A stretch of DNA of 64,000 nucleotides from Minisyncoccota bacterium (GTDB lineage: Bacteria; Patescibacteriota; Minisyncoccia; Phycocordibacterales; Phycocordibacteraceae): assembly GCA_036261925.1 (NCBI GenBank), contig DATAJW010000013.1, positions 22,544-86,543 of the forward strand, written 5' to 3'. Shown piece by piece: positions 1,337 to 53,918 of the stretch. Both the position numbers and the translations under genes were made by a program. Each line of letters starts with the position of its first letter. The stretch's first letter is position 1. The notes beneath the pieces are model-generated. The model saw nothing but the letters and a program-made list of their open reading frames with translations. It was not told where the DNA came from and did not search any database.

Positions 1337-2126
1337 GATCCTCGTCTGGCGCCACTTCCGCAAGGAAGGGCGGCACGACTTGCCATGGCGTACGACGACG
1401 GACGCGTACCGCATCCTCGTCTCGGAGGTGATGCTGCAGCAGACGCAGGTGGAGCGGGTCGTCCCGTTCTACCTGGCGTTCTTGAAGAAATTCCCGACCG
1501 TACGGAAGCTCGCCGATGCATCGCTCTCCTCGGTACTCCAAAGCTGGCAGGGGCTCGGGTATAACCGACGCGCGAAGATGCTGCACGAGGCCGCGAAGAC
1601 GGTCGTTCGCGACTACCACGGGAAGATGCCGACGGACAGCGCGATACTCGAATCGCTTCCCGGCGTGGGTCCCTATACCGCGCGGGCAGTCGCCGCGTTC
1701 TCCGCGAACACGGACAGCATTTTCATAGAGACGAATATCCGCACAGCGGTAACGCATCATTTCTTCGGCGATAGGGAGCAGGTGGCGGACGCAGAAGTCA
1801 TCGCTGTCCTCGAGCAGGCCTATCCGAAAGGACGGGCGCGGGAGTGGTATGCGGCGCTCATGGATTATGGCTCCTTCCTTAAGCGTTCCGGCGTTCGGGT
1901 GAATGCACGCGCGAAAGGGTACGCGAAACAGAAGTCGTTCGCGGGGTCAGCGCGCGAAGCGCGCGGACGGATATTGAAAGCGCTCATCGATAGCCCGAAG
2001 ACTACTCACATCCTGACGAGCCAGCTTGGCCCCGAACGGAAGGAGCAGATGAAGGCCCAGCTCGCTGCGCTCGCCGCGGAAGGCCTTATCGAAAGGAAAG
2101 GCGAGAAGTACCAGCTCCCCGGCTAG
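1317..2126 (+). CDS. HhH-GPD base-excision DNA glycosylase (MutY/Nth-like, no Cys cluster visible)
   Basis: LPGVGPYTARAV HhH-GPD motif, QQTQVERV; no C-x-C Fe-S cluster seen. Confidence 0.65.
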   Translation: MTPQQFRILVWRHFRKEGRHDLPWRTTTDAYRILVSEVMLQQTQVERVVPFYLAFLKKFPTVRKLADASLSSVLQSWQGLGYNRRAKMLHEAAKTVVRDYHGKMPTDSAILESLPGVGPYTARAVAAFSANTDSIFIETNIRTAVTHHFFGDREQVADAEVIAVLEQAYPKGRAREWYAALMDYGSFLKRSGVRVNARAKGYAKQKSFAGSAREARGRILKALIDSPKTTHILTSQLGPERKEQMKAQLAALAAEGLIERKGEKYQLPG

Positions 2127-3277
2127 CGGATGTCCTGCATGCCGAGCGCAGCCCATGTCCCGAGCAACGCGATGGCTATGCCGGTGGATATGAAGAGCGT
2201 GCCATAGCCGGTGGTCGCGAGCAGGATGCTGCCGACCAAGGGCGCGACGAGCGCGCCTGCCGGGCGCATCATGCGTATCACGCTCACGGTGCTCGCGTCG
2301 CGCTCGTCGACCCTGCGGAAGAAGTGCCCCTCGACCATGGCTTCAGTGATGGCCGCCCCGACGCGGGTGAGGAGGAGGATGCCGAAGACGGCCGCGAGCG
2401 GGGTCGCGAGCGTGATGAGCGGCACGAGCGCGAACGCGCCGCCCATGATGAGGAATCCGGCGACGAGCATCTCCTTATCGCCGATGAACCGGTCCGCTAT
2501 CCAGCCGGCAGGGTACTCGAGGAAGACGAAGGGCAGGAGCGCGAACGCGAGAAGCCAGCCGAGATCGCTCCAGGGCATCCCGAGGACCGTATGGAGATAG
2601 AGCGGTATGTAGAGCGGCGCGAGATTGTAGAAGACCTGGAGCATGGCGTGCGCGAAGGTGACCGAACGCAGGTCCTTGTCGTTCATGATGCAGATGCAGG
2701 TCGCGGAAAGCCGCGATATGCGCGGCGGCGCGCCTTCCTGCGGCCGCTCGAACAGGAAGAGCATGATGAACGGGGTGAGCGACAGGCTCGCGGCGAGGAA
2801 GACGCCCCGGTAGTCGCTGCCGTCGCCGAGGATGGCGCCGATGAGGAGCGGCGCGAGGATGACCGCGACGCTGCTCGCGGTCAGGAACGCGGTGCGGATG
2901 CGGCCGGTCGAGCCCTCCTCCCTCACCGTCGCCTCGAGCAGGAGGTCGAGCTGGTAGGCGATGAACGGCGCGGTCGCGCAGACGAGCGCGAGGAGCCCTG
3001 CGGCGAATACGGGAATGGGATTCGCGGCGAGCAGGAGGAGCATGACCGCCTGCAGGAACGCGAGCGCGAGCGCGATGTTCCTCGATCCGAACCTCCTGAC
3101 GAGGCTCGGCATCCAGGGGAAGACCGCGAGGGTCACGACCGCGCCGAGCGAGATGACGAGCCCGGCCGCATCGTCGGACATGAACGTCGCGAGGTACGGT
3201 CCGATGATGTAGATGATGAGGAAGAAATGCCCGCCCGAGAGGAAATTCCCGAACGAGAGCAGGGCGCGCGGCGACAT
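2123..3277 (-). CDS. MFS transporter
   Basis: about 12 predicted TM segments, MFS-like topology, 384 aa. Confidence 0.65.
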   Translation of the reverse strand: MSPRALLSFGNFLSGGHFFLIIYIIGPYLATFMSDDAAGLVISLGAVVTLAVFPWMPSLVRRFGSRNIALALAFLQAVMLLLLAANPIPVFAAGLLALVCATAPFIAYQLDLLLEATVREEGSTGRIRTAFLTASSVAVILAPLLIGAILGDGSDYRGVFLAASLSLTPFIMLFLFERPQEGAPPRISRLSATCICIMNDKDLRSVTFAHAMLQVFYNLAPLYIPLYLHTVLGMPWSDLGWLLAFALLPFVFLEYPAGWIADRFIGDKEMLVAGFLIMGGAFALVPLITLATPLAAVFGILLLTRVGAAITEAMVEGHFFRRVDERDASTVSVIRMMRPAGALVAPLVGSILLATTGYGTLFISTGIAIALLGTWAALGMQDIR

Positions 3278-3327
3278 TGCGTTTCATTTTAGCATCACGG
3301 CAGCCATCCGCGCTGCGTTCGCAGGAA

Positions 3328-3363
3328 GATTCCAACCCTCTGAATCCTTACGGGTTAGATTCG
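3328..3363. repeat. Copy d of a about 40-nt conserved hairpin element (GATTCCAACCC-loop-GGGTTAGATTC)
   Basis: near-identical stem to copies at 41809, 47630, 53449. Confidence 0.6.
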
Positions 3364-3380
3364 CTTGCGTTGCTTCGTCA

Positions 3381-3413
3381 CGTAAAGCCCCGCACGAAGT
3401 GCGGGGCTTTACG
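3381..3413. terminator. perfect palindromic hairpin (CGTAAAGCCCCGCAC GAA GTGCGGGGCTTTACG), likely terminator downstream of RNase J
   Basis: 33-nt perfect inverted repeat seen in sequence. Confidence 0.6.
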
Positions 3414-3578
3414 TACGTTTCAGTTGGCCGACTGACGGTCGTTCGACCGATGAGAATCCTCGTGCAAACGCTTCTTATGCGAGGCAGGGGAAGACGGGCG
3501 CACGACGCGTATCGAGCATGCGAAGAGAGTGCTCGGCGGGGACCCGAGCGACGCAGAAGGAGCGTTTGAACGGATCCG

Positions 3579-5558
3579 CTACACCCCGATCAACACCGGG
3601 ATGACCATCGGCGCCTTGTTCGAGCGCGTGAACAGGTAGCCTGCCATCGTATCGGAGAGCGCGTTCTTCACGTGGTCGAGATCGACGGGGTTCATGCCCT
3701 GCGTGGAGTCCTCGACGGTCTTCTTGATGAGGAGGCGCGCCTGGTTGAGCATGTCCTGGTTCTCGCGCAGGTAGACGAAGCCGCGGCTGATGATGTCCGG
3801 CGACTTGCGGAGCTTCCCGGTCTTCAGGTTGACCGTCGCGATGATGACGAACATGCCGTCCTTCGCGAGCATCTGGCGGTCGCGGATGACGACCTCCTGC
3901 AGGTCGCTGATGGAGAAGCCGTCCACCGCGAGCGGGGAGCTCGGCACCTTCTGCTTGTGGATGTTCATGCGCTCGCCGTCCTCGATGTCGATGACCATGC
4001 CGTTGTCGGCGACGACGATGGATTCCTTCGGGCGTCCGGCCTGCTCCACGGCCTTCGCGTGCGAGGCGGTCATGGAGTAGTAGCCGTAGGCGGGCATGAA
4101 GAACTTGGCGTTGACTTGCTTGTTGATCCAGATGAGCTCGCCGGTGTTGCCGTGGCCGGTCGAGTGCACGTCGGAGGAACGGTAATGGATGAGGGTGACG
4201 CCGTTGCGGTACAGGTTGTCCTTCAGGGTCTGCACCGAGATCTCGTTGCCGGGGATGACGGAGGACGAGAGCACGATGGTATCGCGCGGGGTGAGCGTGA
4301 TGCTCTTGTGCTGCTTGGTCGCGATGCGCATGAGCGCGGCGAACTCCTCGCCCTGCGCGCCGGTCGAGAGGATGACGATCTTATCGGGCGGATAGTCGCC
4401 GATCTCCTGCGCGCTGATGATGGTCTCCTTCTTCACCTTGAGGAGGCCGGTCTTCTGCGCGATCTCGAGATTGGTCTTGATGGAGCGGCCTTCGGTGACG
4501 ATTTTCTTGCCGAGCGATTCCGCTATCTCGATGATGCGGACCATGCGCTCGAACTGCGAGGCGAAGGTACCGATGATGAGGCGGCCCTGCACGGTCTTGA
4601 TGATGCCCTCGAGGGTCTCGTGCACCTTGCGCTCGGGAACCGAGAATCCGTCGCGCTCCGCGTTCGTGGAGTCGGCGATGAACATGAGGTTCTTCTGCTT
4701 GGCGAGCACGCCCCAGGTATCGACTTCCTTCTGGGTCGGGATGCCGTTCTCGTGGTCGAGCTTGAGGTCGCCCGTGACGACGACGTTGCCGTACGGGGTC
4801 TCGATGGCGATGCCCATGGAATCCGGTATGGAGTGGGTCACGGCGAAGAACTGGACCTTCGTCGCGCCTATGGTCATGGTCTGGCCGGCCTCGACGACGA
4901 CGAGGTTCGGCTTGGGCATATCCGGATATTCCTCCTGGCGCTTCGCGATCATGACCGCGGTCAGGTTCTGGGTATAGATAGGCGGGTTGCCCATGCGCTC
5001 CATGAGGAACGGGATACCGCCGATGTGGTCGAGATGGCCGTGGGTGATGAACACGCCGCGGATGCGCTCCTTATGCTTCTCGAGGTAGGTGGTGTTCGGG
5101 AGCAGGTAATCGACGCCGGGATTGGAGCCCTCGGAGACGAACTGGAAGCCGACGTCGAAGACGAATATATCGTTGTTGGTCTCGACGCAGAACATGTTGC
5201 GGCCGACCTCCTCGACGCCGCCGAGCGGGATGACGCGGACGACCGACTTCGCGGGAGCCTCGGGAAGGTAGACGGGCACGTTCTTCGGTGCCGCTCCCTG
5301 GGATGGCCCGGAAGGACGGCGCAGCGTGCGGCGTATCTGGCGGGAGACGCGGCCGGGACGGCCGCCGCCCTGGGGAGCGCGCTCGCCGCGAGGCGCGCCC
5401 GGCGCGCGGCCCTGGCCGCCCCGTCCCTGGCCGCCGCGCGTGCGTGTGCGGGGACCGCGTTCAGGACGCGGGCCGCGTGGCGCGGGCGTGGCGGAGCTGC
5501 TAGGTGATCGCGGCGCGGGAGCAGGGGCCGGAGCCGGCGCGGAGGATGCATTCGACAT
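3579..5558 (-). CDS. rnj: Ribonuclease J (metallo-beta-lactamase / beta-CASP) with Arg/Gly/Pro-rich N-terminal extension
   Basis: HGHLDHIGG motif, beta-CASP region, RNase J C-terminal domain; first about 105 aa low-complexity PAPAPA/RGG. Confidence 0.85.
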   Translation of the reverse strand: MSNASSAPAPAPAPAPRSPSSSATPAPRGPRPERGPRTRTRGGQGRGGQGRAPGAPRGERAPQGGGRPGRVSRQIRRTLRRPSGPSQGAAPKNVPVYLPEAPAKSVVRVIPLGGVEEVGRNMFCVETNNDIFVFDVGFQFVSEGSNPGVDYLLPNTTYLEKHKERIRGVFITHGHLDHIGGIPFLMERMGNPPIYTQNLTAVMIAKRQEEYPDMPKPNLVVVEAGQTMTIGATKVQFFAVTHSIPDSMGIAIETPYGNVVVTGDLKLDHENGIPTQKEVDTWGVLAKQKNLMFIADSTNAERDGFSVPERKVHETLEGIIKTVQGRLIIGTFASQFERMVRIIEIAESLGKKIVTEGRSIKTNLEIAQKTGLLKVKKETIISAQEIGDYPPDKIVILSTGAQGEEFAALMRIATKQHKSITLTPRDTIVLSSSVIPGNEISVQTLKDNLYRNGVTLIHYRSSDVHSTGHGNTGELIWINKQVNAKFFMPAYGYYSMTASHAKAVEQAGRPKESIVVADNGMVIDIEDGERMNIHKQKVPSSPLAVDGFSISDLQEVVIRDRQMLAKDGMFVIIATVNLKTGKLRKSPDIISRGFVYLRENQDMLNQARLLIKKTVEDSTQGMNPVDLDHVKNALSDTMAGYLFTRSNKAPMVIPVLIGV

Positions 5559-7923: not shown

Positions 7924-8232
7924 ATGGCAAAGACCGAAAAACTCTCTATCGCTCCGCTCGCTGACCGCGTCGTCATCGAGCCTTCCCCTAAGGAAACCGT
8001 GTCCGCATCCGGCATCATAATCCCGGACTCGGCCAGCCGAGAAAAGCCGGAGCAGGGAACCGTAGTCGCAGTCGGCCCCGGCCGCTATGACGACGGCGCC
8101 TTGGTCCCGATGACGCTCAAGTCCGGCGACACCGTCCTCTTCTCCAAGTACGGCTACGACGAGGTGAAGGTCGACGGCACCGACTACCTCATCCTCCCCG
8201 AGTCGAGCGTATTAGCAGTCATTAGCCACTAG
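7924..8232 (+). CDS. groES: Co-chaperonin GroES
   Basis: 102 aa, classic GroES sequence. Confidence 0.95.
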   Translation: MAKTEKLSIAPLADRVVIEPSPKETVSASGIIIPDSASREKPEQGTVVAVGPGRYDDGALVPMTLKSGDTVLFSKYGYDEVKVDGTDYLILPESSVLAVISH

Positions 8233-8300
8233 GCACTGGGCAGTTAGTAGGATTCGAACTTCCCTATTCTTCCCTAACGCCTGATTCCCTAACAAACTAA

Positions 8301-10587: not shown

Positions 10588-11148
10588 ATGACTATCCTCT
10601 ACATCGTGCTCGGCATTCTCGTGCTCGTGCTGCTCTGGGCCATCGTCGCCTACAACGGCTTCGTCTCGCTCCGCAATCGCGCCAAGGAGGCGTGGTCAGA
10701 TATCGAGGTGCAGATGAAGCGCCGTTACGATCTCATCCCGAACCTCGTGGAGACGGTGAAGGGCTACGCCGCGCATGAGCGCGCGACATTCGATAGCGTC
10801 ACTGCGGCGCGCGCCAACGCGATGAACGCGCAGACCGTCGCCGAGCACGCGGAGGCGGAGAACATGCTCTCGGGCGCGCTCAAGTCGCTCTTCGCGGTCT
10901 CCGAAGCGTATCCGGACCTCAAGGCGAATACGAATTTCCTCGAGCTCCAGCGCGAGATAAGCGATACCGAGAACAAGGTGATGGCCTCTCGCCGCTTCTA
11001 CAACCAGAACGTCCTGCAGCTCAACACGGCGGTCGAGCAGTTCCCGGGCAACGTGATCGCCGGACCGTTCGGCTTCGGCCAGATGGAGCTCTTCGAGCTC
11101 GCGGAAGGCGAGGAGGCAGCACGCCAGCCGGTGAAAGTTAGTTTTTAG
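10588..11148 (+). CDS. lemA: LemA family protein
   Basis: N-terminal TM plus conserved LemA core (RYDLIPNLVETVKGYA...FPGN). Confidence 0.85.
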   Translation: MTILYIVLGILVLVLLWAIVAYNGFVSLRNRAKEAWSDIEVQMKRRYDLIPNLVETVKGYAAHERATFDSVTAARANAMNAQTVAEHAEAENMLSGALKSLFAVSEAYPDLKANTNFLELQREISDTENKVMASRRFYNQNVLQLNTAVEQFPGNVIAGPFGFGQMELFELAEGEEAARQPVKVSF

Positions 11149-11527
11149 CCACTAGACGTTAGGGTATTAGGGAATGCAGACGTATCGGGACCTGATCGTT
11201 TGGCAACGAAGCATCGAACTCGTTACTGCCATCTATCAGCTCACGAACGCATACCCGAAATCCGAGCTCTTCGGCCTCACGAGTCAGATGCGGCGTGCAG
11301 CAGTATCCATACCCTCGAATATTGCCGAAGGATACGCGCGTAAATCCAGGAAAGAATACATTCAATTCCTGCGCATAGCAGAACTCGAAACGCAACTAAC
11401 AATCACCAGGAACCTTGCACTCGTCACGGAGGAGAAGCTCAAGGTATCCGAAGCGCTTCTGAACGAAACCATGCGTTTATTGAATAAGTTTATCTCTTCC
11501 CTAACGTCTAAACCCTAGTGGCTATAC
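11146..11527. mobile_element. Inverted-repeat-flanked about 380-bp insertion carrying a four-helix-bundle (23S rRNA IVS) protein gene
   Basis: left TAGCCACTAGACGTTAGGGTATTAGGGAA (11146-11175) and right TTCCCTAACGTCTAAACCCTAGTGGCTA (11498-11525) are imperfect inverted repeats; internal GC lower than the flanks; splits the usually adjacent lemA-htpX pair. Confidence 0.55.
11174..11518 (+). CDS. Four-helix-bundle protein (23S rRNA intervening-sequence protein family, TIGR02436-like)
   Basis: DLIVWQRSIELVTAIYQLTNAYPKSELFGLTSQMRRAAVSIPSNIAEGYARKS matches the conserved IVS-protein motif. Confidence 0.8.
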   Translation: MQTYRDLIVWQRSIELVTAIYQLTNAYPKSELFGLTSQMRRAAVSIPSNIAEGYARKSRKEYIQFLRIAELETQLTITRNLALVTEEKLKVSEALLNETMRLLNKFISSLTSKP

Positions 11528-11537
11528 CCTAATTCAT

Positions 11538-19546: not shown

Positions 19547-19552
19547 TGCAGC

Positions 19553-19997
19553 ATGGACCGGTCGATAAGCCGAATTCTGTAGCGCGCGCCCGCTACGGCA
19601 CGCACCGACGACCATCTATCTGGGACTGCTGTCGCCAGCAGCCTCGAGCGGCGCTCAACCTTGTGCGGAGCAGAAGGGAGCCCTCGACCACGCACCATTC
19701 CCGAAGGGAATTCCTATTTGGAAATTGGTGCTTGGAATGTGGAGCTTCCTTATGCTCCGCATAAGGTGCACGGCCTTGCACAGCGGTAAGGGTTTAGCCG
19801 TTTCAGTCGTACGTCGCCGTACGCCCGCTCTCAAGGAGAGCTCCTTCACCTTTCGGCTCCGGACGTTTCTGTTCGCACCTCGCGCCTCGCGGCGGGCAGG
19901 CGTTACCTGCTACCAGACTGCCCTCGCTTCAGCGTGGGCCTGTGTTCGGACTTTCCTCCATCGCCCGAAGGCGACAGCGGTCGTCTGACCGGTCCGG
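19553..19997 (-). ncRNA. rnpB: RNase P RNA (bacterial type A)
   Basis: reverse complement contains GGAGGAAAGTCCG (P4 5' strand), GGTAGCAGGTAACGCCTGCC, and ACAGAATTCGGCTTATCGACCGGTC (P4 3' strand and P1); P1 GGACCGGTC/GACCGGTCC. Confidence 0.8.
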
Positions 19998-28076: not shown

Positions 28077-28258
28077 CGCTTGGGTAAGAAGCTTGCTACG
28101 CAACTTCTTTCCGGGCGCTCGCTCGGCGAGCAAGAATATACCTTCGGGCGCATTCTTGTTGCCTCGCTTGGGTAAGAAGCTTGCTACGCAACTTCTTTCC
28201 CTACGCTCGTTCGACAAATGAGAATATGCCCTTCCGGGCGCATTCTCATCGTCTCACT
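28077..28258 (+). repeat. Two tandem about 90-nt repeats, each beginning with the first 9-10 nt of tRNA-Phe (CGCTTGGGTA) and containing 2-3 hairpins
   Basis: unit 1 at 28077-28164, unit 2 at 28165-28258; shared CGCTTGGGTAAGAAGCTTGCTACGCAACTTCTTTCC. Confidence 0.7.
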
Positions 28259-28259
28259 C

Positions 28260-28332
28260 GCTTGGGTAGCTCAGTTGGTAGAGCACTCCCCTGAAGAGGG
28301 AGGGGTCACCGGTTCGACCCCGGTCCCAAGCA
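28260..28332 (+). tRNA. tRNA-Phe (anticodon GAA)
   Basis: acceptor GCTTGGG/CCCAAGC, anticodon loop CTGAAGA, T-loop TTCGACC; 73 nt. Confidence 0.85.
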
Positions 28333-29434: not shown

Positions 29435-29531
29435 TGCGTTAGCCACTCGCCATTAGTACTTAGGGAAGAAGGCCCTGGAACTTCGTTCCAGGGCCTATCC
29501 TACTAACTGCCTAACCCCTAGTGGCTAAAAA

Positions 29532-30020
29532 CTAGCTCGCTTTGATCTTCAGCTTCGTCTGTCGCGTCTTATCGAGCTTCGGCAGGACGATGTTGAGCAG
29601 GCCGTCCTTGGCGGCAGCGGATGCGAGGTCGACGTCCACCTCCTGCGGCAGGAGGATGGTGCGCGAGAAGGTTCCCCAGAAGAGCTCGCGGGTGAAGTAA
29701 TCGGAGTCGGCGAGCTGCTCGCGCTCGTCGCGCGAGCCGTCGATGACGACCATGTCGCGGCTGATGGAGACATTGAGGTCGTCGGGGCGGACGCCGGCAA
29801 CGAAGGTGCGGATGACGATCTCGGTCGCGGTCTGGTAGACGTCGACGGGGAGCTGGCCCTCGCTCGGCTCGTCCTCGTGCAGCGTCGCGAGCGGAACGTT
29901 CTGCGCCAATGAATCCCGGGCACGCACGGGCTCGCGGCGGGGAAGCTCGTCCTCGTAGTCGTAGTCGTCGGCAAGCGGCACGGAACCCGCGAGGCGATCG
30001 AGGAGGGAGCGTTTTTTCAT
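29532..30020 (-). CDS. Hsp20/alpha-crystallin family small heat-shock protein
   Basis: alpha-crystallin domain (PVDVYQTATEIVIRTFVAGVRPDDLNVSISRDMVVIDGSR...GLLNIVLPK). Confidence 0.8.
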   Translation of the reverse strand: MKKRSLLDRLAGSVPLADDYDYEDELPRREPVRARDSLAQNVPLATLHEDEPSEGQLPVDVYQTATEIVIRTFVAGVRPDDLNVSISRDMVVIDGSRDEREQLADSDYFTRELFWGTFSRTILLPQEVDVDLASAAAKDGLLNIVLPKLDKTRQTKLKIKAS

Positions 30021-40354: not shown

Positions 40355-41617
40355 TTATTTCTTGTGACGACGGAGGAACGAAGGAATCGCCCCCCACGCC
40401 TCCTCCTCTTCAGGAGCGGGCGGCGTGAGCGGCTTGGCTTCGTCGCGAGCGGACGGCTTGGCGGTCACGACCGGCTCCTCCTTGCGGGGAAGCTCGGCCT
40501 CCTCCTCGATGTTCTCGAGAACCGCCTCGGGCAGCTGTTCCTCGCGCGACGACGGCTTCATGATGGCGTTGAATATCTTGCCGCGGGTCTCTTCCTGCGT
40601 CTCGGCAGGCATGGCGAAGAGCGAACGCTCGGCCGTCGGGGTGGTGTGCTCGGTCTCGAGCTCGGGGAAGCCGGTCGCGATGACGATGATGCGGATCTGG
40701 CCCTTCTTGAGCTTCTCGTCGCGCATGATACCGAAGATGACCTTCGCGCTCTTGTCGACGGAGTCGGAGACGACCTTCGCGGCCTCCTGGACCTCGAGGA
40801 TGCCGAGATCCTCGGAACCCGCGACGACGAAGAGCACGCCCTTCGCGCCCGTGATGGAGACGTCGAGGAGCGGGGAATTGACGGCCATGGCGGCGGCGTC
40901 CTGCGCGCGGCGGTCGCCGTCGGCGATGCCGATGCCCATGAGGGCGGGGCCTGCGCCCTCCATGATGGCCTTGATATCGTTGAAGTCGGTATTGATCTCG
41001 CCGGGCGTCGTGATGATATCGGAAACGCCCTCGACGGCCTGGCGGAGTATCTCGTCGGCCATGGCGAACGCGCTCTTCGCGGTCGTCTGCGCCTCGACGA
41101 TGGAGAGGAGCTTATCGTTCGGGATGACGATGAAGGCGTCGACTTCCTTCTTGAGCTCGGCGAGGCCCTGCTCGGCGATGTCCTTGCGCTGCATGCCCTC
41201 GAACGCGAACGGCTTGGTCACGACCGCGACGGTGAGCGCGCCGATCTCCTTCGCGATCTTCGCGACGATCGCGCTCGCACCCGTGCCGGTGCCGCCACCC
41301 ATGCCGCAGGTGATGAACACCATGTCCGATCCCTGGAGCGCCTCGAGTATCTCCTGGCGCGTCTCTTCCGCTGCGCGGCGGCCGAGCTCGGGGTTCATGC
41401 CCGCGCCGAGGCCCTTGGTGAGGTTCTTGCCGATGTGGATCTTCTTCTTCGCGAGCGAGCGGTGGAGGTCCTGCGCGTCGGTGTTGATGGCCACGAACTC
41501 CACGCCCTTCACCTTGGAGTTGATCATGTGGTTCACGGCGTTGTTGCCGGAGCCGCCGCACCCGACTACCCGTATGCGGGCAAAGGTCTCGATCTCGGAT
41601 TCTACGCGCTTTGACAT
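40355..41617 (-). CDS. ftsZ: Cell division GTPase FtsZ
   Basis: GGGTGTG tubulin signature, 420 aa. Confidence 0.97.
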   Translation of the reverse strand: MSKRVESEIETFARIRVVGCGGSGNNAVNHMINSKVKGVEFVAINTDAQDLHRSLAKKKIHIGKNLTKGLGAGMNPELGRRAAEETRQEILEALQGSDMVFITCGMGGGTGTGASAIVAKIAKEIGALTVAVVTKPFAFEGMQRKDIAEQGLAELKKEVDAFIVIPNDKLLSIVEAQTTAKSAFAMADEILRQAVEGVSDIITTPGEINTDFNDIKAIMEGAGPALMGIGIADGDRRAQDAAAMAVNSPLLDVSITGAKGVLFVVAGSEDLGILEVQEAAKVVSDSVDKSAKVIFGIMRDEKLKKGQIRIIVIATGFPELETEHTTPTAERSLFAMPAETQEETRGKIFNAIMKPSSREEQLPEAVLENIEEEAELPRKEEPVVTAKPSARDEAKPLTPPAPEEEEAWGAIPSFLRRHKK

Positions 41618-41808
41618 ATGAGGGATATAGGGCCGCTAAAAAGGCTGGGCTCATCATACCAGCTGATTTCAGCCTGCAAAGGGTGACAAATCCTTAGGCC
41701 GTGCTGTATTTTCTCCGCCAAAATGCCCGTTCTCGCTCACGACCGCAAGCGAGAACGGACGCATTTCGCCCACGAGTCGCACGATCCCGCAATGCTACGG
41801 AGCGAGCC

Positions 41809-41851
41809 GTTCAATCTAACCCGTCAAGGTACTCCAGGGTTGAGATTGAAC
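41809..41851. repeat. Copy a of the about 40-nt conserved hairpin element (GTTCAATCTAACCC-loop-GGGTTGAGATTGAAC)
   Basis: between ftsA and ftsZ. Confidence 0.6.
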
Positions 41852-41865
41852 GGTGAGCGGAGCCC

Positions 41866-43032
41866 TTAGGGGAGAAACTGCTTGAAGAACCGCTGTACCG
41901 CCCCCGCGACATCCCCCGCGGACCGCTTCTTCGGGGTCTCGGTGTCGCCGGTGAGCCCCCAGAGCGCGAGGCCGTACGCGACCGCCCAGGTCGCGTCGCG
42001 GACCTTCACTTCCGGCGAGATGCGCATGTCGGCGATGCGCGACGGGAGGTTCAGCGTACCCTTCGCGATGTCGGTGATAGAGCCTTGCCCAGCGCCGCCG
42101 CCCGAGATGATGATGCCTGCAGGGAGGGTGCGTCCGCGGCCGAGCTGCTTCAGGTGCTTGTCGATGAGCTCGAACATGGCGCGGAAGCGCGCGGTGACTA
42201 TTTCCTCCACCTTGCGGCGCGGATACATGGAACCCGAGAGGCGGCCGAGCTTCAGGCGCTCCGCGTCCTCGAGCGATACCTTGAAGCCGAGCGCGAGGTC
42301 GTCGGTGATGTGCGTGGAGCCGATAGGGAAGACCTTCACGGATACCGGAAGGCCCTCGTCGTACACCACGATTGAGACGGTCTCGGCCCCGATGTTGGCG
42401 AGGACGCAGCCCTTCATCTTCTGGTCCTTGGTGAGGGTGACATAGGAACCCGCGAGCGGGGACGCCATGCGGTCGATGACCTCGATATCGGCCGCCTCGG
42501 TCGCGGTCTCGAGCAGCTCGGCATGCTGCGTGAGGCAGGTGATGAAGAGGTAGTCGGCCTCAAGGCGGGTGCCCTTGAGGCCGACCGGCTCACCGAGCGA
42601 CTTCGTGCCGTCGACGCGGAACTCGAGCGGTATCTCGTGGAGCACGGTGCGGTTGAGGAAGTTCGGACGGGCCGCTTCCCGCGCGGCCTCCCGGGTCTTC
42701 TCGATATCGAGATCGGTTATCTCCTGGTCGGCGCGGGATATGACCGTCTCGCCCGAGGCGCGGACCTCGTCGAGAGAGATGCCGCCGATGGCGAGGAAGC
42801 CTTTCTTGATGGGAACCTGCGCGGTCTGCTCGGCCTGCTGGCGCGCAGCACGGACGGATTCCGCCGCGTCCTCCGCATCGACGACATAGCCGTGGCGCAA
42901 GCCCCGCGTCTCCGCGATGCCCGTCCCGATGATGCGCAGCACCGGCCCTTCCTGGCTAGCCAGCTCCTCGACGACCACCACCTTGGTGTGGTGGGTGCCG
43001 ATATCAATGCCGGTTGCTATGCGTCGTGCCAT
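41866..43032 (-). CDS. ftsA: Cell division protein FtsA (start at internal Met)
   Basis: MARRIATGIDIGTHHTKVVVVE actin-fold N-terminus; the tool ORF has a 69-aa non-conserved extension. Confidence 0.85.
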   Translation of the reverse strand: MARRIATGIDIGTHHTKVVVVEELASQEGPVLRIIGTGIAETRGLRHGYVVDAEDAAESVRAARQQAEQTAQVPIKKGFLAIGGISLDEVRASGETVISRADQEITDLDIEKTREAAREAARPNFLNRTVLHEIPLEFRVDGTKSLGEPVGLKGTRLEADYLFITCLTQHAELLETATEAADIEVIDRMASPLAGSYVTLTKDQKMKGCVLANIGAETVSIVVYDEGLPVSVKVFPIGSTHITDDLALGFKVSLEDAERLKLGRLSGSMYPRRKVEEIVTARFRAMFELIDKHLKQLGRGRTLPAGIIISGGGAGQGSITDIAKGTLNLPSRIADMRISPEVKVRDATWAVAYGLALWGLTGDTETPKKRSAGDVAGAVQRFFKQFLP

Positions 43033-43423
43033 GTACAGGGGGAATGTGGATGAGGCGAGCGAGAAGCGCTCGCTCTTCACGTTCCATTGTAGGGCCGTGA
43101 CGCTTCCCGGCCAAATGCAGGAGCCCGTGGATAAAAAGGAATCCGACGAATGCGGTGTACGAAAGCCCGTAGTCGGGCGCCTGCTTCTTCGCGACCTCGA
43201 GGCAGATGATGATCTCGCCGCTCTTGTTCCCGGTCTCATACGAGAGGACGTTCGGGACGTAGTCCTTGTTGCGGAGCTTTACGTTGATGCTCTGCGCACG
43301 CTGCTGTCCCGCGAACACGAGGGAGATGTCCCAGCCGGGAAGGGCAGCATCGAGCGCTTTCTTATATGGAAAAGCAGGCTGAGGGCGCCGGGTGAAGTTT
43401 CGAGTGTCGAGCGAACTTTTCAT
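43004..43423 (-). CDS. ybeY: Endoribonuclease YbeY
   Basis: VLSY...IIICLEV...HGLLHLAGKRHG (H3xH5xH zinc motif). Confidence 0.7.
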   Translation of the reverse strand: MKSSLDTRNFTRRPQPAFPYKKALDAALPGWDISLVFAGQQRAQSINVKLRNKDYVPNVLSYETGNKSGEIIICLEVAKKQAPDYGLSYTAFVGFLFIHGLLHLAGKRHGPTMEREERALLARLIHIPPVHGTTHSNRH

Positions 43424-46790: not shown

Positions 46791-47543
46791 ATGACGGCAC
46801 CGTCTCTTCAAGAGATCGATCGCCAGCTGCCGCTTCTCTATACCAACACGCTCGTGCGGTACGAGCCGCTTCCTATCCGCGGCAAGCGCAACCTGCTCAT
46901 GCTGCTCGACCTGCATGCGGTCCCGCATGCGACTGAATGGGGGGACGGGTACTCCCGCACGCTCCCGCAGCTCATCCGCGATATGCGCCGAGGCGAAGCG
47001 ACCATCGTGCTCTACTATCCGAGCATCGCGGGCTTCCAAGAAGATCACGCGTACCTGACGCGGATGATACGGACGGTATCGATCCGCATCACGTACGACC
47101 TGCCCGATCCGACGCCGCTCAACCCCGAGCATGTGCGGCCGCTCGTGCTGCGCGAATACCGCACGGCCGCAGGCGGCGCGCTCCATCCGCGGAAGTTCCC
47201 GAATCCGAGCGAGACGATGGTGCGGAAGGACCGGACGCAGCACCATACGATCCTGCGGTTGCTGCGCGAGGAGCTCGGCATCCGCATCACGCACCGCCAG
47301 TTCCGGAGCCTGATCGTCCCGAACCTGACGTTCATGCCTTCGGCGCTGCGCGAGTTCGAGGACCAATGCGCGGGACGGCAGACCGAGCTCGCTATCCACG
47401 CCTCGGATAAGTATCCGGGACTCTGGACGCACAACGAGGTCTGGCACTACCTGCTCAAGCTTCCGACGCAGTTCTACCAGCCGGACGGGTACCGCGAGGA
47501 CCAGAACGTCAGCTTATGGGAAGATGCCGAGCACAAAGACTGA
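46791..47543 (+). CDS. hypothetical protein (250 aa), partial Nudix-like REELGI signature only
   Basis: ORF preceded by GAGGAGA SD; followed by two terminator hairpins (47545-47570, 47581-47607). Confidence 0.45.
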   Translation: MTAPSLQEIDRQLPLLYTNTLVRYEPLPIRGKRNLLMLLDLHAVPHATEWGDGYSRTLPQLIRDMRRGEATIVLYYPSIAGFQEDHAYLTRMIRTVSIRITYDLPDPTPLNPEHVRPLVLREYRTAAGGALHPRKFPNPSETMVRKDRTQHHTILRLLREELGIRITHRQFRSLIVPNLTFMPSALREFEDQCAGRQTELAIHASDKYPGLWTHNEVWHYLLKLPTQFYQPDGYREDQNVSLWEDAEHKD

Positions 47544-47629
47544 ACCCCGATCTCGCGATCGGGGTTCCTTGTATACGAGCAGGGCCCGGCGCTTCGCGCC
47601 GGGCCCTGCTGCATAAGAGCGAGCGGATG

Positions 47630-47666
47630 CTAATCTAACCCGTCAAGTTCCTACAGGGTTGAGATT
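47630..47666. repeat. Copy b of the about 40-nt conserved hairpin element (AATCTAACCC-loop-GGGTTGAGATT)
   Basis: between the convergent 46791 ORF and the S1 gene. Confidence 0.6.
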
Positions 47667-47679
47667 CGCATCCCGAGCG

Positions 47680-48807
47680 CTACTTTTTCTTGCCGACGTA
47701 GGAAAGCGTCATGCGCTGGTCCTTCGGCTCGAAGAGCGTGATGGTGAACGGGTACGTCTTGCCGAGCTCGAGCGCGTCGCGGAGCGCCGCAGGGGACTCG
47801 AATTCGCTGATGTGCACGAGGCCGGCGACGCCCTCCTCGATGGACGCGAGCGCGCCGTGCTTGTTGTACTTGATGACGACGCCCTGCACCTCCATGCCCT
47901 TCTTGTAGCGGTCGCTCGCGACCTTCCACGGATTCTCCTTGAGCGCCTTGATGGAGAGGGAGACCTTGCCGTCCTTCACCTCGATGACCTTCACCTTCAC
48001 GGCGTCGCCGACGGAGAAGAGCGCGCGCGGGTCCTCGACGAGGCCCCAGTCGAGCTCGCTGATGTGCACGAGGCCCTCGAGGCCCTGCTCGAGCTTCACG
48101 AAGACGCCGAAGTCGACGGCACCCGTGACCTCGCCCTCGACGACGTCGCCCACCTGGTACTTATCGACGAGCGATGCCTTCTCCTCGTCCTCGCTGCCTG
48201 CGCGCTCGGAGAAGATGAGCTTGCCCTCCTTCGGATCGGCCGTGATGATGCGGACCGAGAGCGGCTGGCCGGCGAGCTTCTGCAGCTCGGCGAAGATCTT
48301 GTCCTTATCGCCTTCAGGCACGCGCGGGTAATGCTCCTTCGAGAGCTGGGAGGCAGGGAGGAAGCCCTGGATGCCCTGCCACGAGAGGATGAGGCCGCCC
48401 TTGTTCGCCTCGTCGACGGTGAGGGTGTAGACGGTTTCCGCGGCGATGGCCTGCTCGGCCTCGCCCCAGATAGCGGCCTGGCGCGCCTCCTTGAGGGAGA
48501 GCTCGATGTAGCCCTCGATACCGGACGGATCGACGACCTTCGCGGTGATGGTGTCGCCCGGGTTCGACTTGCGGAGCACGTCGGCGGCATTGAGGTACTC
48601 GCGCCCGTAGATGATGCCGCTACCGAACGGCGGCAGGTCGACATAGAGACGGCCGCGCACGAGCTCGATGATGGTACCTTCAATCAGATCCCCGACCTTA
48701 GGCGGGGTGGCTATGTCGTCGACCTTGGAAGCCATCGGGTGGCTCGGGTCGATGACGAGGGTGCTTGCGGGAATCACAGGCGCCTTCTTAACTTCTTCTT
48801 CTGGCAT
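47680..48807 (-). CDS. rpsA: 30S ribosomal protein S1 (short, four S1 domains)
   Basis: repeated S1 OB-fold motifs (G..V.G.V....FGAFV). Confidence 0.8.
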   Translation of the reverse strand: MPEEEVKKAPVIPASTLVIDPSHPMASKVDDIATPPKVGDLIEGTIIELVRGRLYVDLPPFGSGIIYGREYLNAADVLRKSNPGDTITAKVVDPSGIEGYIELSLKEARQAAIWGEAEQAIAAETVYTLTVDEANKGGLILSWQGIQGFLPASQLSKEHYPRVPEGDKDKIFAELQKLAGQPLSVRIITADPKEGKLIFSERAGSEDEEKASLVDKYQVGDVVEGEVTGAVDFGVFVKLEQGLEGLVHISELDWGLVEDPRALFSVGDAVKVKVIEVKDGKVSLSIKALKENPWKVASDRYKKGMEVQGVVIKYNKHGALASIEEGVAGLVHISEFESPAALRDALELGKTYPFTITLFEPKDQRMTLSYVGKKK

Positions 48808-49401
48808 GGATATGGGCGGGCGCGCGGATTTGCGGCAAGTACTGGGGAGAGGAAGTTAGTTACTAGCCATTAGGGTTTTAGTAGGAAGGATTCCTGACTA
48901 ACTGCCTAACGACTAGTGGCTAACGACTGGCACCCCAGGGATAGCTTGCTCGCGGCTACTAGACGCGCCTGCGATGAAGGGTTTATACCACTATATAGGT
49001 AAAAGAAAAAGCCCCCGACCTGCGTCGGGGCTTTGCGGCAGCGTAGGTCTCCGTAAAAGGAAAGAGCCCGGGGTTAGCGGGCTCTTGGAGTATCTTCCGT
49101 CTCCGGAAGCTGTCGATGGTGCGACCTGCGGGCGCAGGAACCGGGATAGTCCCGGCAGCGCTCCCCTGCGGCTTCCTTCTGGAGAAGCTCATCCAGGGTC
49201 GCTTTCGCGAGCAGGTCGGCTTCCGCGCGATTGCGCGGCCGCGGATGGATCCGGTGCATAGCAGCTCCGTGTGAAGTGAAAGAACTGGGATTCAGGCGAG
49301 ATAGGCGGGGATGACAACTTTCCCGGAAGCATCCCCGCCTCCTCGCGCATGGCTCGCGGCCTCGTGGGACCGACTGCCGCTCGCCGCGCAAGCTCGGCCG
49401 C

Positions 49402-50963: not shown

Positions 50964-53432
<2,469 letters not shown>

Positions 53433-53448
53433 GGCTTCACTCGCACTC

Positions 53449-53487
53449 CGAATCTCAACCCTCTAAATTCTTACGGGTTAGATTCGG
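53449..53487. repeat. Copy c of the about 40-nt conserved hairpin element (GAATCTCAACCC-loop-GGGTTAGATTC)
   Basis: 16 nt after the gyrA stop. Confidence 0.6.
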
Positions 53488-53531
53488 AGGCGTCGTTCCG
53501 TCGATTTTAGTATTCAAGGGCGCGGGGTAGT

Positions 53532-53918
53532 ATGGAGGGGTTATTTAGTAAAGCTATTCGTATGGGACCAGAAGGAATGGGCGACATCGGGCCGAAGCAG
53601 TACACGACCGGCAGGCCGGAAGCGGCGCCGGCTTCGACGGAAGCCTCGGATGCGGACGTATTCGAGGCGAGCTTCTCGCCGCAGATGGGCGCGCTCTACC
53701 GGCAGGCAGGCGAGGTTGGTGCCGACGTGCCGGCAATCGTCGCCAAGATGAACGCGCTCGGCGAGGGTCAGATCGCGGAGGACGCGTACGATGGGCTCTC
53801 GCTCGCCGACCGCGAGATGCTCGAGCCGCGCACCGTCATGCTCGCGAACGGCCACTCGCTCTCGTACACCCGCAACAAGCGCGGCGTGTTCGAGTTCTCG
53901 AGCGAGACGGCAGGGTAG
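53532..53918 (+). CDS. hypothetical protein (128 aa)
   Basis: ORF followed by a strong terminator at 53925-53970. Confidence 0.35.
   Translation: MEGLFSKAIRMGPEGMGDIGPKQYTTGRPEAAPASTEASDADVFEASFSPQMGALYRQAGEVGADVPAIVAKMNALGEGQIAEDAYDGLSLADREMLEPRTVMLANGHSLSYTRNKRGVFEFSSETAG

Follow-up and report, generated by a model that had tools for sequence, protein, structure and literature searches.

In the 64,000-nucleotide stretch of contig DATAJW010000013.1 analyzed here (hereafter the window), which comes from a Minisyncoccota bacterium, four intergenic hairpins named c1 to c4 belong, as far as sequence comparison reaches, to a family of small, dispersed palindromes not catalogued before, which occurs in one lineage of the Patescibacteria (Candidate Phyla Radiation, CPR). 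The members of this family share a stem-loop fold with covariation, follow a common rule of placement beside stop codons and terminators, are polymorphic in their presence or absence at orthologous sites, and carry an extremely conserved core. With a probability of about 0.5, the element is a new lineage-restricted and structure-constrained dispersed repeat of the REP/BOX/Correia type, located beside terminators and forming, in its usual position, a stem-loop of a 3' untranslated region (3'-UTR).

A preliminary description of the window had pointed to four nearly identical hairpins of about 40 nt in both orientations, and all four lie where it placed them (Table 1), in intergenic regions, with c1 and c4 on the plus strand and c2 and c3 on the minus strand. 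The genes around the copies were fixed with Pfam and codon-position GC (GC3), and the contexts first given for three of them agree with these gene calls: c2 is found between ftsA and ftsZ, c3 lies between an S1-domain gene and a convergent plus-strand open reading frame (ORF), and the c4 hairpin starts 16 nt past the gyrA stop codon. The exact pattern AATCTCAACCC-N10-18-GGGTTAGATT has three matches in the window (c2, c3, and c4) versus 0.00 expected from 100 dinucleotide shuffles of it, while c1 is a variant of this pattern (GATTCCAACCC...GGGTTAGATTC). Within the window, GGGTTAGATT is confined to the four hairpins, and the matches to it with one mismatch are tRNA T-arms. A covariance model built from the copies and run on the window with filters off recovered these four copies only (scores in Table 1), the best unrelated match reaching 9.5 bits and the opposite strand of the same four sites no more than 21 bits. 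The four elements are richer in AT than their surroundings, the G+C content of the window being 60–68%.

The hairpin of 36–40 nt forms just the tip of a stem-loop that measures about 62 nt and extends into covarying flanks, and the unit length originally proposed was thus too short. From base to tip, the element is composed of a helix P0 (2–4 bp), a 2x2 mismatch, a helix P1 (6–12 bp), a helix P2, and a loop of 11–14 nt. The symmetric 2x2 mismatch is kept, as TC/TC on the strand reading AATCTCAACCC and as GA/GA on the other strand. P1 has a sequence unique to each copy, yet the two flanks of each copy are mutually complementary. P2, AATCT[C]AACCC/GGGTTAGATT, is a nearly invariant helix in which one C is bulged, and semi-conserved boxes are located outside P1, namely (C)CGCTCG on the 5' side and CTCGCTCC on the 3' side. 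The bulged C of the 5' arm is seen in c2–c4, in line with the conservation claimed for it. P2 is only the apical module of the whole unit. The loops of the window measure 13–14 nt, and not 13–16 nt as had been stated, and the loop pattern said to be shared by all copies applies only in part, since there are two loop classes, one TCTAAATTCTTAC-like (c1 and c4) and the other of the form TG..CTTGAC (c2 and c3). By inspection, loop class B agrees with the flipped complement of class A at 8 of 12 positions. The loop is also expandable, with about 60 nt extra in copy L008b (L numbers are loci outside the window).

Covariation statistics were obtained from a structure-guided alignment of 23 distinct copies taken from the window, from metagenome-assembled genomes (MAGs) of related Patescibacteria, and from metagenomes. 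RNAalifold predicts a single stem of 17–20 bp from the aligned copies. Standard pairs occupy 90–91.5% of the cells versus 73–74% after shuffling, a level reached by none of 500 shuffles, and the covariation score is 0.41–0.43 compared with 0.10–0.12 in the shuffles. Compensatory double changes occur at 14 of the 20 pairs, and sliding the pairing partner by one column, as a control, lowers the paired cells to about 47–52% or less. In P0, GC is replaced by AU in four copies and CG by UA in another set of four, and the boxes change together, c4 and L009 combining CACTC with TCGTTC, and L006 combining CGTTC with TCACTC. Even P2 presents Watson–Crick replacements in L025 (AATCCCAACCC/GGGTTGGATT), L008b (GATTTCAACCC/GGGTTAAATC), and L018b (AATCAAATCC/GGATTTGATT). 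Both outcomes for which the preliminary description had suggested checks, namely further copies elsewhere and compensatory changes, were obtained. Its principal claim, that of a structured element specific in sequence, is thereby upheld, and the element may be any of the candidates listed there (protein-binding site, processing signal, small-RNA module, or insertion hotspot). Judging from these substitutions, the hairpin is under selection. The flanks CGCTCGC...GCTCGCTCC were also considered as a target-site duplication, a possibility that was rejected because both boxes covary as a helix, the GC on the 5' side pairing with that on the 3' side.

The elements occupy a defined place relative to genes. 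A terminator hairpin made of an A-run, a GC-rich stem, and a T-run is located at most 90 nt away on the 3' side of the element in about 18 of the 23 copies, and in the window a separate terminator on this side is seen for c1, c2, and c3. The hairpins flagged on the 5' side by the same scan fall only within the adjacent coding sequence and lack the A-run and T-run arms. In the commonest arrangement, that of the proximal copies, the order is stop codon, element, and terminator. P0 starts 1–7 nt past the stop codon wherever the end of the upstream gene is present, with the exception of L001 (14 nt), and in at least 11 distinct copies the core starts 13–27 nt past the stop codon of a gene in the same orientation. 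The upstream genes of the proximal copies are gyrA (c4), ftsA (c2), and the S1-domain gene (c3) in the window, and, in relatives, rpoC (L001, L010), ftsZ (L002, L009, L025), rplL (L005), RNase J (L006), a pilB-type ATPase gene (L011), rpsO (L013), and a mechanosensitive channel gene (L018). In the distal copies (c1, L003, L004, L012a, L017, and L008a), the gene is followed by the terminator, then by a reversed element, and then by the start of the next gene; c1, L003, and L004 are orthologous, all being located between RNase J and the next gene. A single polarity rule covers proximal and distal copies alike: the 3' end of the element faces the terminator hairpin. A translation-coupled attenuator, in which the freed 3' arm would pair with the terminator, does not apply generally, as P1 shares words with the terminator in c2 and not in c3, L002, or L007. 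The stop codon beside an element is either TAG or TAA and never TGA. Among the 47 GC3-supported ORFs of the window, 26 end in TAG, 14 in TAA, and 7 in TGA, a dominance of TAG that is unusual for bacteria; thus, the TAG beside the elements simply follows the commonest usage of the window.

Scans with the exact pattern gave 8 loci in species-representative genomes, all of them MAGs labeled Candidatus Saccharibacteria or Paceibacterota, and 14 loci in metagenomes, whereas a match inside an ORF of a 33%-GC contig (L019) was treated as unrelated or due to chance. Exact-core copies are restricted to CPR MAGs and metagenomes, with several copies per MAG. Syntenic loci were obtained via FtsZ homologues with 84–85% identity. 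At the c2 site (the ftsA–ftsZ spacer) and the c3 site (after the S1-domain gene), the relatives show a stop codon and a terminator only, whereas the window has the additional element at both and, at the former, an additional terminator too. The site after ftsZ is occupied in L002, L009, and L025, whereas the window, L023, and L027 lack a copy there. Three RNase J-anchored loci of relatives, picked independently of the element and spanning about 66 kb, contain no copy, and their RNase J is followed by a plain terminator. According to the matrix of RNase J identities, the element-bearing genomes are not a clade, since elements occur both in the window, whose identity to the L025/L029 species is 0.92, and in the distant pair L004/L006, at 0.81, and no copy was seen in the approximately 110 kb examined of the intermediate clade (L030, L031, L024, and L027 genomes).

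A single 34-nt core sequence, loop included, is shared by c4, L002, L004, L005, L009, and L018, whereas the DNA identity of ftsZ is only 74–82% (window, L002, L009, L023, L025, and L027). This higher conservation of the core than of ftsZ coding DNA implies a conserved trans-acting partner. Moreover, the loop type tracks the genome and not the locus: the three CAYWEI01 copies, located at the rpoC end, at the site between RNase J and the major facilitator superfamily (MFS) transporter gene, and at L007, all have TGTAGGAAC.. loops, while in other genomes the rpoC and RNase J sites orthologous to these have TCTAAATTC.. loops. Patchy gain and loss, homogenization within genomes or co-evolution with a partner, and a constrained recognition module are, as read from these comparisons, the dynamics of a repeat family. 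Empty sites, genome-specific loops, and identical cores therefore disfavor a fixed, vertically inherited regulatory site.

Some loci contain longer or compound forms. At L008, two elements (1767–1850, plus strand, and 1840–1971, minus strand) stand tail to tail after one gene with no separate terminator, the second having a core that has diverged and a loop that carries an inserted 60-nt hairpin, and the pair constitutes a REPIN-like inverted doublet. L007 (826–945, minus strand) and L012 (3254–3420, plus strand) carry long hairpins flanked by the boxes (CGCTCGC ... TCGCTC), 2–4 nt past the stop codon, in which a bidirectional terminator forms the tip in place of the AATCTCAACCC core. The long hairpin of L007 is situated between the mechanosensitive-channel gene and the 23S rRNA, a site holding a core-bearing copy in L018.

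According to the favored reading, the element would be a non-autonomous, structure-dependent repeat of the REP/BOX/Correia kind that spreads or is homogenized within genomes, and we infer that a dedicated protein recognizes the invariant P2 helix together with its bulge. In the usual position, the element would be co-transcribed as a 3'-UTR stem-loop, which could act on the stability or processing of the mRNA 3' end or on the terminating ribosome, the latter because the base of the hairpin lies within the ribosome footprint at the stop codon. Liang, Rudd and Deutscher reportedly observed in 2015 that a REP within about 15 nt of the stop codon affects translation.

Several observations weigh against this reading. 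Firstly, no transposase or binding protein was identified for the element. Secondly, terminal inverted repeats and a target-site duplication are absent, given that the ends of the element, formed by P1, are the variable part and the flanking "direct repeats" form a helix. Copy-specific compensated P1 stems are, moreover, hard to obtain from simple copy-and-paste and argue for long residence under structural constraint. Thirdly, the two strands are unequal. Among the non-Watson–Crick cells on the mRNA-sense strand of the proximal copies, A.C outnumbers G.U by 20 to 7 (binomial p = 0.019, the copies not being independent), and in 17 of 21 copies the opposite strand forms the more stable RNA fold, by more than 9 kcal/mol in L001, L003, L004, and L005. 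On this opposite strand, the TC/TC loop becomes a tandem GA/GA in a pyrimidine-GA-purine context. Finally, the reversed copies c1, L003, and L004 are conserved at one orthologous site, where a sigma-70-like promoter for the canonical strand was sought and not found, and thus a purely mRNA-sense 3'-UTR function cannot cover all copies.

The strand asymmetry is tied to the orientation of the element itself and not to local transcription, the better-folding strand of L003 and L004 being the transcribed one. The opposite strand also gives the full-length hairpin of the long elements. Copy c1 is near balance, with 3 G.U versus 2 A.C in the covariance-model alignment and -22.9 versus -21.7 kcal/mol for the two strands. 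Deamination or a transcription-coupled mutation bias would predict an asymmetry of the opposite sign.

An unlikely explanation, although one to be taken seriously, is that of a selfish element without host function, whose mobile form is single-stranded DNA and whose targets are terminator hairpins, as in REP/RAYT systems, in palindromic elements derived from IS200/IS605, or in the way group IIC introns choose their sites. The folded strand would be recognized by an enzyme of HUH or similar type, which would insert the element beside a terminator hairpin with fixed polarity and, terminators being near-palindromic, both sides would be available in mirror orientation. Such a mechanism would fit the orientation of the 3' end towards the terminator in proximal and distal copies, the patchy distribution with empty sites, the identical cores across diverged genomes, and a strand asymmetry intrinsic to the element and not to the host transcript; moreover, in DNA a tandem GA/GA is stable when its context is pyrimidine-GA-purine. 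However, the orientations in the window (+, -, -, + for c1 to c4) track genes and transcription, not a single fork direction, which disfavors an IS608-style model based on lagging-strand single-stranded DNA. The better-folding strand is the gene template strand and hence, for replication-oriented genes, the leading-strand template, the opposite of what the IS608 model holds. Furthermore, neither a GTAG or CGTC tag nor a Y1 transposase among the gene-listed loci of relatives was found, and compensated P1 stems in immobile copies require selection at the level of the host.

It is rather improbable that the element is a vertically inherited cis-regulatory RNA motif instead of a mobile repeat, that is, the protein-binding 3'-UTR signal of a regulon that would coordinate genes of cell division, transcription, translation, and RNA decay (ftsA, ftsZ, gyrA, rpoC, rplL, rpsO, RNase J, and S1). 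The recurrence of the same gene ends across genomes (ftsZ in three, rpoC in two, and the RNase J neighborhood in four), the strong covariation around an invariant P2 and loop, and the tight start 1–7 nt past the stop codon speak for such a regulon. Nevertheless, orthologous sites are empty in equally close relatives, and a whole sub-clade shows no copy in the approximately 110 kb already mentioned; loop types are specific to genomes and not to loci, reversed copies are conserved, and A.C is in excess on the mRNA strand.

Similarly doubtful is the broader proposal that the element represents the recognition module of an undescribed CPR machinery that reads nucleic-acid structure, either as a mobilizer or as an RNA-binding regulator. 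If the mobilizer form were true, a hairpin homed beside terminator hairpins with fixed polarity would constitute a new targeting logic for non-autonomous elements, and it would account for both the mirror-orientation rule and the intrinsic strand asymmetry. If the regulator form were true, genes of cell division, of the transcription machinery, and of RNA decay would be linked through their 3' ends, and this in organisms whose regulatory repertoires are minimal.

There is little likelihood that function resides in the opposite strand (AATCTAACCC...GGGTTGAGATT, with GCGAG...CGAGC on its flanks), acting as an RNA hairpin or as template-strand or cruciform DNA, with a role as a barrier or processing site for read-through of the adjacent bidirectional terminator towards the gene 3' end. 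The greater stability of this strand and the tandem GA/GA motif formed there would be explained, the perfect 22–24-bp stems of L003 and L004 need its G.U pairs, and in c1, L003, L004, L012a, and L017 this strand is located downstream of the terminator in the direction of local transcription. On the other hand, no transcript is expected from that direction between co-directional genes (ftsA->ftsZ, gyrA->ORF, rpsO, and rpoC), inspection of this strand reveals no consistent U-tract after the hairpin, and after discounting related copies the asymmetry reaches only moderate significance.

Lastly, it is hardly credible that the elements are plain Rho-independent terminators sharing sequence by chance, as the preliminary description rightly suspected: although the hairpins stand at gene 3' ends, their loops in the window are of 13–14 nt, their stems are AT-rich and bulged, the flanks CTCGCTCCGTAGC, CTCGCTCTTATGC, and GTCGTTCCGTCG have no T-run and none was found in the 3' flanks (CTCGCTCC.. 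or GTCGTTCC..), where the terminator scan marks neighboring hairpins only, a distinct canonical terminator follows in about 18 of the 23 copies, the same genes terminate without the element in relatives, and identical cores and compensatory changes are found elsewhere.

To our knowledge, no small dispersed repeat or non-coding regulatory element is known for CPR/Patescibacteria. These bacteria have tiny, streamlined genomes, in which a long covarying hairpin is kept precisely between the stop codons and terminators of essential genes. The partner of the element, once found, would reveal a new mechanism of mobilization or a layer of post-transcriptional control in organisms that are not yet genetically tractable. 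In addition, the covariance model is a ready marker for the lineage and helps to annotate 3'-UTRs and terminators in its MAGs.

Table 1. Elements, neighboring hairpins, and a second repeat located in the window.
Feature	Coordinates	Strand	Layout	Context	Score (bits)
c1, full element, most diverged of the four	3313..3377	+	P1 CGCA../..TGCG; P2 GATTC[C]AACCC/GGGTTAGATTC (3328-3362); loop TCTGAATCCTTAC		53.2
c2, full element	41799..41860	-	CCGCTCA box; P1 CCGTTC/GAACGG; P2 core 41813-41847; loop TGGAGTACCTTGAC; 3' box CTCGCTCC	5 nt past ftsA stop TAA (41866-41868)	65.7
c3, full element	47617..47679	-	CGCTCGG box; P1 GGATGC/GCATCC; P2 core 47632-47666; loop TGTAGGAACTTGAC; 3' box GCTCGCTC	abuts TAG stop (47680-47682) of S1-domain gene	73.6
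c4, full element	53438..53499	+	CACTC box/P0; P1 GCACTCCG/CGGAG-GCG; P2 AATCT[C]AACCC/GGGTTAGATT (53451-53484); loop TCTAAATTCTTAC; 3' box GTCGTTCC	5 nt past gyrA stop TAG (53430-53432)	78.2
Bidirectional terminator-type hairpin	3383..3412		AAAGCCCCGCAC GAAG GTGCGGGGCTTT	between RNase J 3' region and c1; faces c1 3' end	
Intrinsic-terminator-like hairpin 3' of c2	41720..41764	-	CCGTTCTCGCT/AGCGAGAACGG then GCATTTTGG	upstream of conserved ftsZ promoter region	
GC-rich palindromic hairpin	47578..47610		AGCAGGGCCCGGCGC..GCGCCGGGCCCTGCT	6 nt beyond c3, between convergent genes, in terminator position	
Second repeat, five copies	8216-8253, 11136-11170, 11499-11533, 29502-29536, 48897-48931	- (first two)	ACTAACTGCCTAAC..CTAGTGGCTAA	one copy just upstream of S1-domain gene	

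Regarding the neighbors of the four copies, c4 sits between two cistrons, gyrA (50964..53432, plus strand) and a plus-strand ORF starting at 53532. The S1-domain gene preceding c3 (48807..47680, minus strand) converges with the GC3-supported plus-strand ORF at 46791-47543, and the position of the GC-rich hairpin beyond c3 is taken by a plain terminator in relatives. Copy c2 has the same sense as both ftsA (43239..41866, minus strand) and ftsZ (41617..40355, minus strand). The terminator next to c2 reuses words of its P1 and boxes (CCGTTC-TCGCT / AGCGA-GAACGG), both c2 and this terminator are missing from the ftsA–ftsZ spacer of relatives, and the terminator may be a rearranged partial element. 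Copy c1 is reversed with respect to both of its neighbors, RNase J (5558..3579) and the MFS transporter gene (3277..2123), both on the minus strand. Past the hairpin closing the 3' region of RNase J, it precedes the start codon of the MFS gene (3277) by about 27 nt.

RNase J is also followed, 2–3 nt past its stop codon, by an imperfect hairpin of about 126 nt, which is found in the window (3450-3576, minus strand) and in the distant L004 (7379-7505) with 10 compensatory pairs and no Rfam match. Closer relatives (L029, L030, and L031) show a plain terminator after RNase J without this hairpin, which could be a structured RNase J 3'-UTR or a small RNA. The window further contains a class A RNase P RNA (117 bits) at 19550-19996 on the minus strand, ten tRNA genes, and a second dispersed repeat with five intergenic copies in both orientations (Table 1). 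Moreover, a tandem duplication at 28077-28142 and 28165-28230 (CGCTTGGGTAAGAAGCTTGCTACGCAACTTCTTTCC...), with a spacing of 88 nt, 85% identity, and one hairpin per unit, is located just upstream of a tRNA at 28260 and gives a weak match of 9.5 bits to the element model.

In comparison with known systems, none of the copies has a match in Rfam 15 at the gathering threshold, with noise only around c4 and c1 at E ≤ 10 or E ≤ 5. Collections of phages, plasmids, and viral contigs gave no match either, on which ground an origin from any of these was rejected, and literature searches returned no description of such an element for Saccharibacteria, Patescibacteria, or Parcubacteria. TIGR-Tas systems consist of tandem arrays next to a tas gene, whose units contain two unpaired spacers of 8–12 nt flanked by box C/D (PMC12045711); an array unit of this type was rejected, because the present copies are single and dispersed, with no array, and their variable P1 segments are complementary. 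A bacterial selenocysteine insertion sequence or a hairpin for stop-codon recoding needs an in-frame UGA, which is excluded by the adjacent TAG or TAA. A DNA uptake sequence was discarded, since the 10-mer is found only inside the four hairpins of the window, as was a tRNA-like T-arm, because GGGTTAGATT differs by one mismatch from the tRNA sequence GGGTTCGATT but has no acceptor or T-stem context. Intrinsic terminators, which call for a GC-rich stem with a loop of 3–8 nt and a U/T-tract right behind it, are similar in forming a hairpin at the gene 3' end and differ in that the element has no U-tract, a long loop, and an AT-rich bulged stem.

The likeness to the attC sites of integrons is closer. 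Both are located directly 3' of an ORF in fixed orientation, keep structure above sequence, and possess an extrahelical base and a variable tip; in both, the better-folding strand is the complement of the coding strand, and P2 contains ATCT[C]AAC / GTTAGAT, which fits RYYYAAC/GTTRRRY. However, these boxes are internal here and not basal, are separated by about 17 nt, and are not accompanied by an L box, and the elements are single sites after housekeeping genes instead of cassette arrays, with no integrase seen. An attC site requires basal R''/R' and L''/L' boxes, a length of 57–141 nt, and cassette arrays with or near intI, and it was rejected on account of this architecture.

The closest known kind is that of the small dispersed palindromic repeats, which include REP/BIME/REPIN, the pneumococcal BOX/RUP/SPRITE, the Correia elements of Neisseria, and the enterobacterial ERIC elements. 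The BOX/RUP/SPRITE, Correia, and ERIC families are small and non-coding, fold into stable hairpins once transcribed, are enriched downstream of coding sequences, are co-transcribed together with genes next to them, vary in presence between related genomes, and are proposed to be parasitic and sometimes co-opted, SPRITE being found near 3' ends (PMC3049150). The present element resembles them in forming hairpins, in its location downstream of coding sequences, and in its variable presence, but it has no sequence similarity to them. Elements of the BOX/Correia type have conserved terminal inverted repeats, and RUP and Correia also have target-site duplications and a known partner insertion sequence, whereas no such ends are present here. 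In addition, SPRITE is itself terminator-like, while the present element stands beside a terminator with fixed polarity. The terminal inverted repeats and target-site duplication of miniature inverted-repeat transposable elements likewise do not occur, as CGCTCG and CTCGCTC pair and covary (GC to AU and CG to UA).

REP/BIME/REPIN elements of proteobacteria, mobilized by RAYT (also TnpA-REP), are short, dispersed, intergenic imperfect palindromes, often just past stop codons and within operons, which occur in both orientations, fold as single strands, are homogenized within a genome, and affect mRNA stability (PMC3733652, PMC3116915). The resemblance lies in the dispersed extragenic imperfect palindromes in both orientations (4 in 64 kb, two per strand) near stop codons. 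However, the whole stem is conserved in REP, whereas here conservation is limited to the apical helix, with a covarying lower stem; a basal 2x2 mismatch is conserved, the copy density is lower (4 per 64 kb), and the host belongs to the CPR. REP/RAYT palindromes are defined by GTAG or CGTC as a conserved tetranucleotide at one of their ends (PMC3733652). No consistent tag exists in the 23-copy alignment, GTAG being found only in stop-codon context (c3 and L013), and no RAYT gene (Y1 HUH, PF01797-type), which REPs typically flank, appears in the gene lists of the FtsZ- and RNase J-anchored loci of relatives, which are genome fragments only, the window itself not being fully annotated. Thus, the family is set apart from known repeats by its tagless ends, its invariant tip over a covarying base, its basal mismatch, and its polarity facing the terminator.

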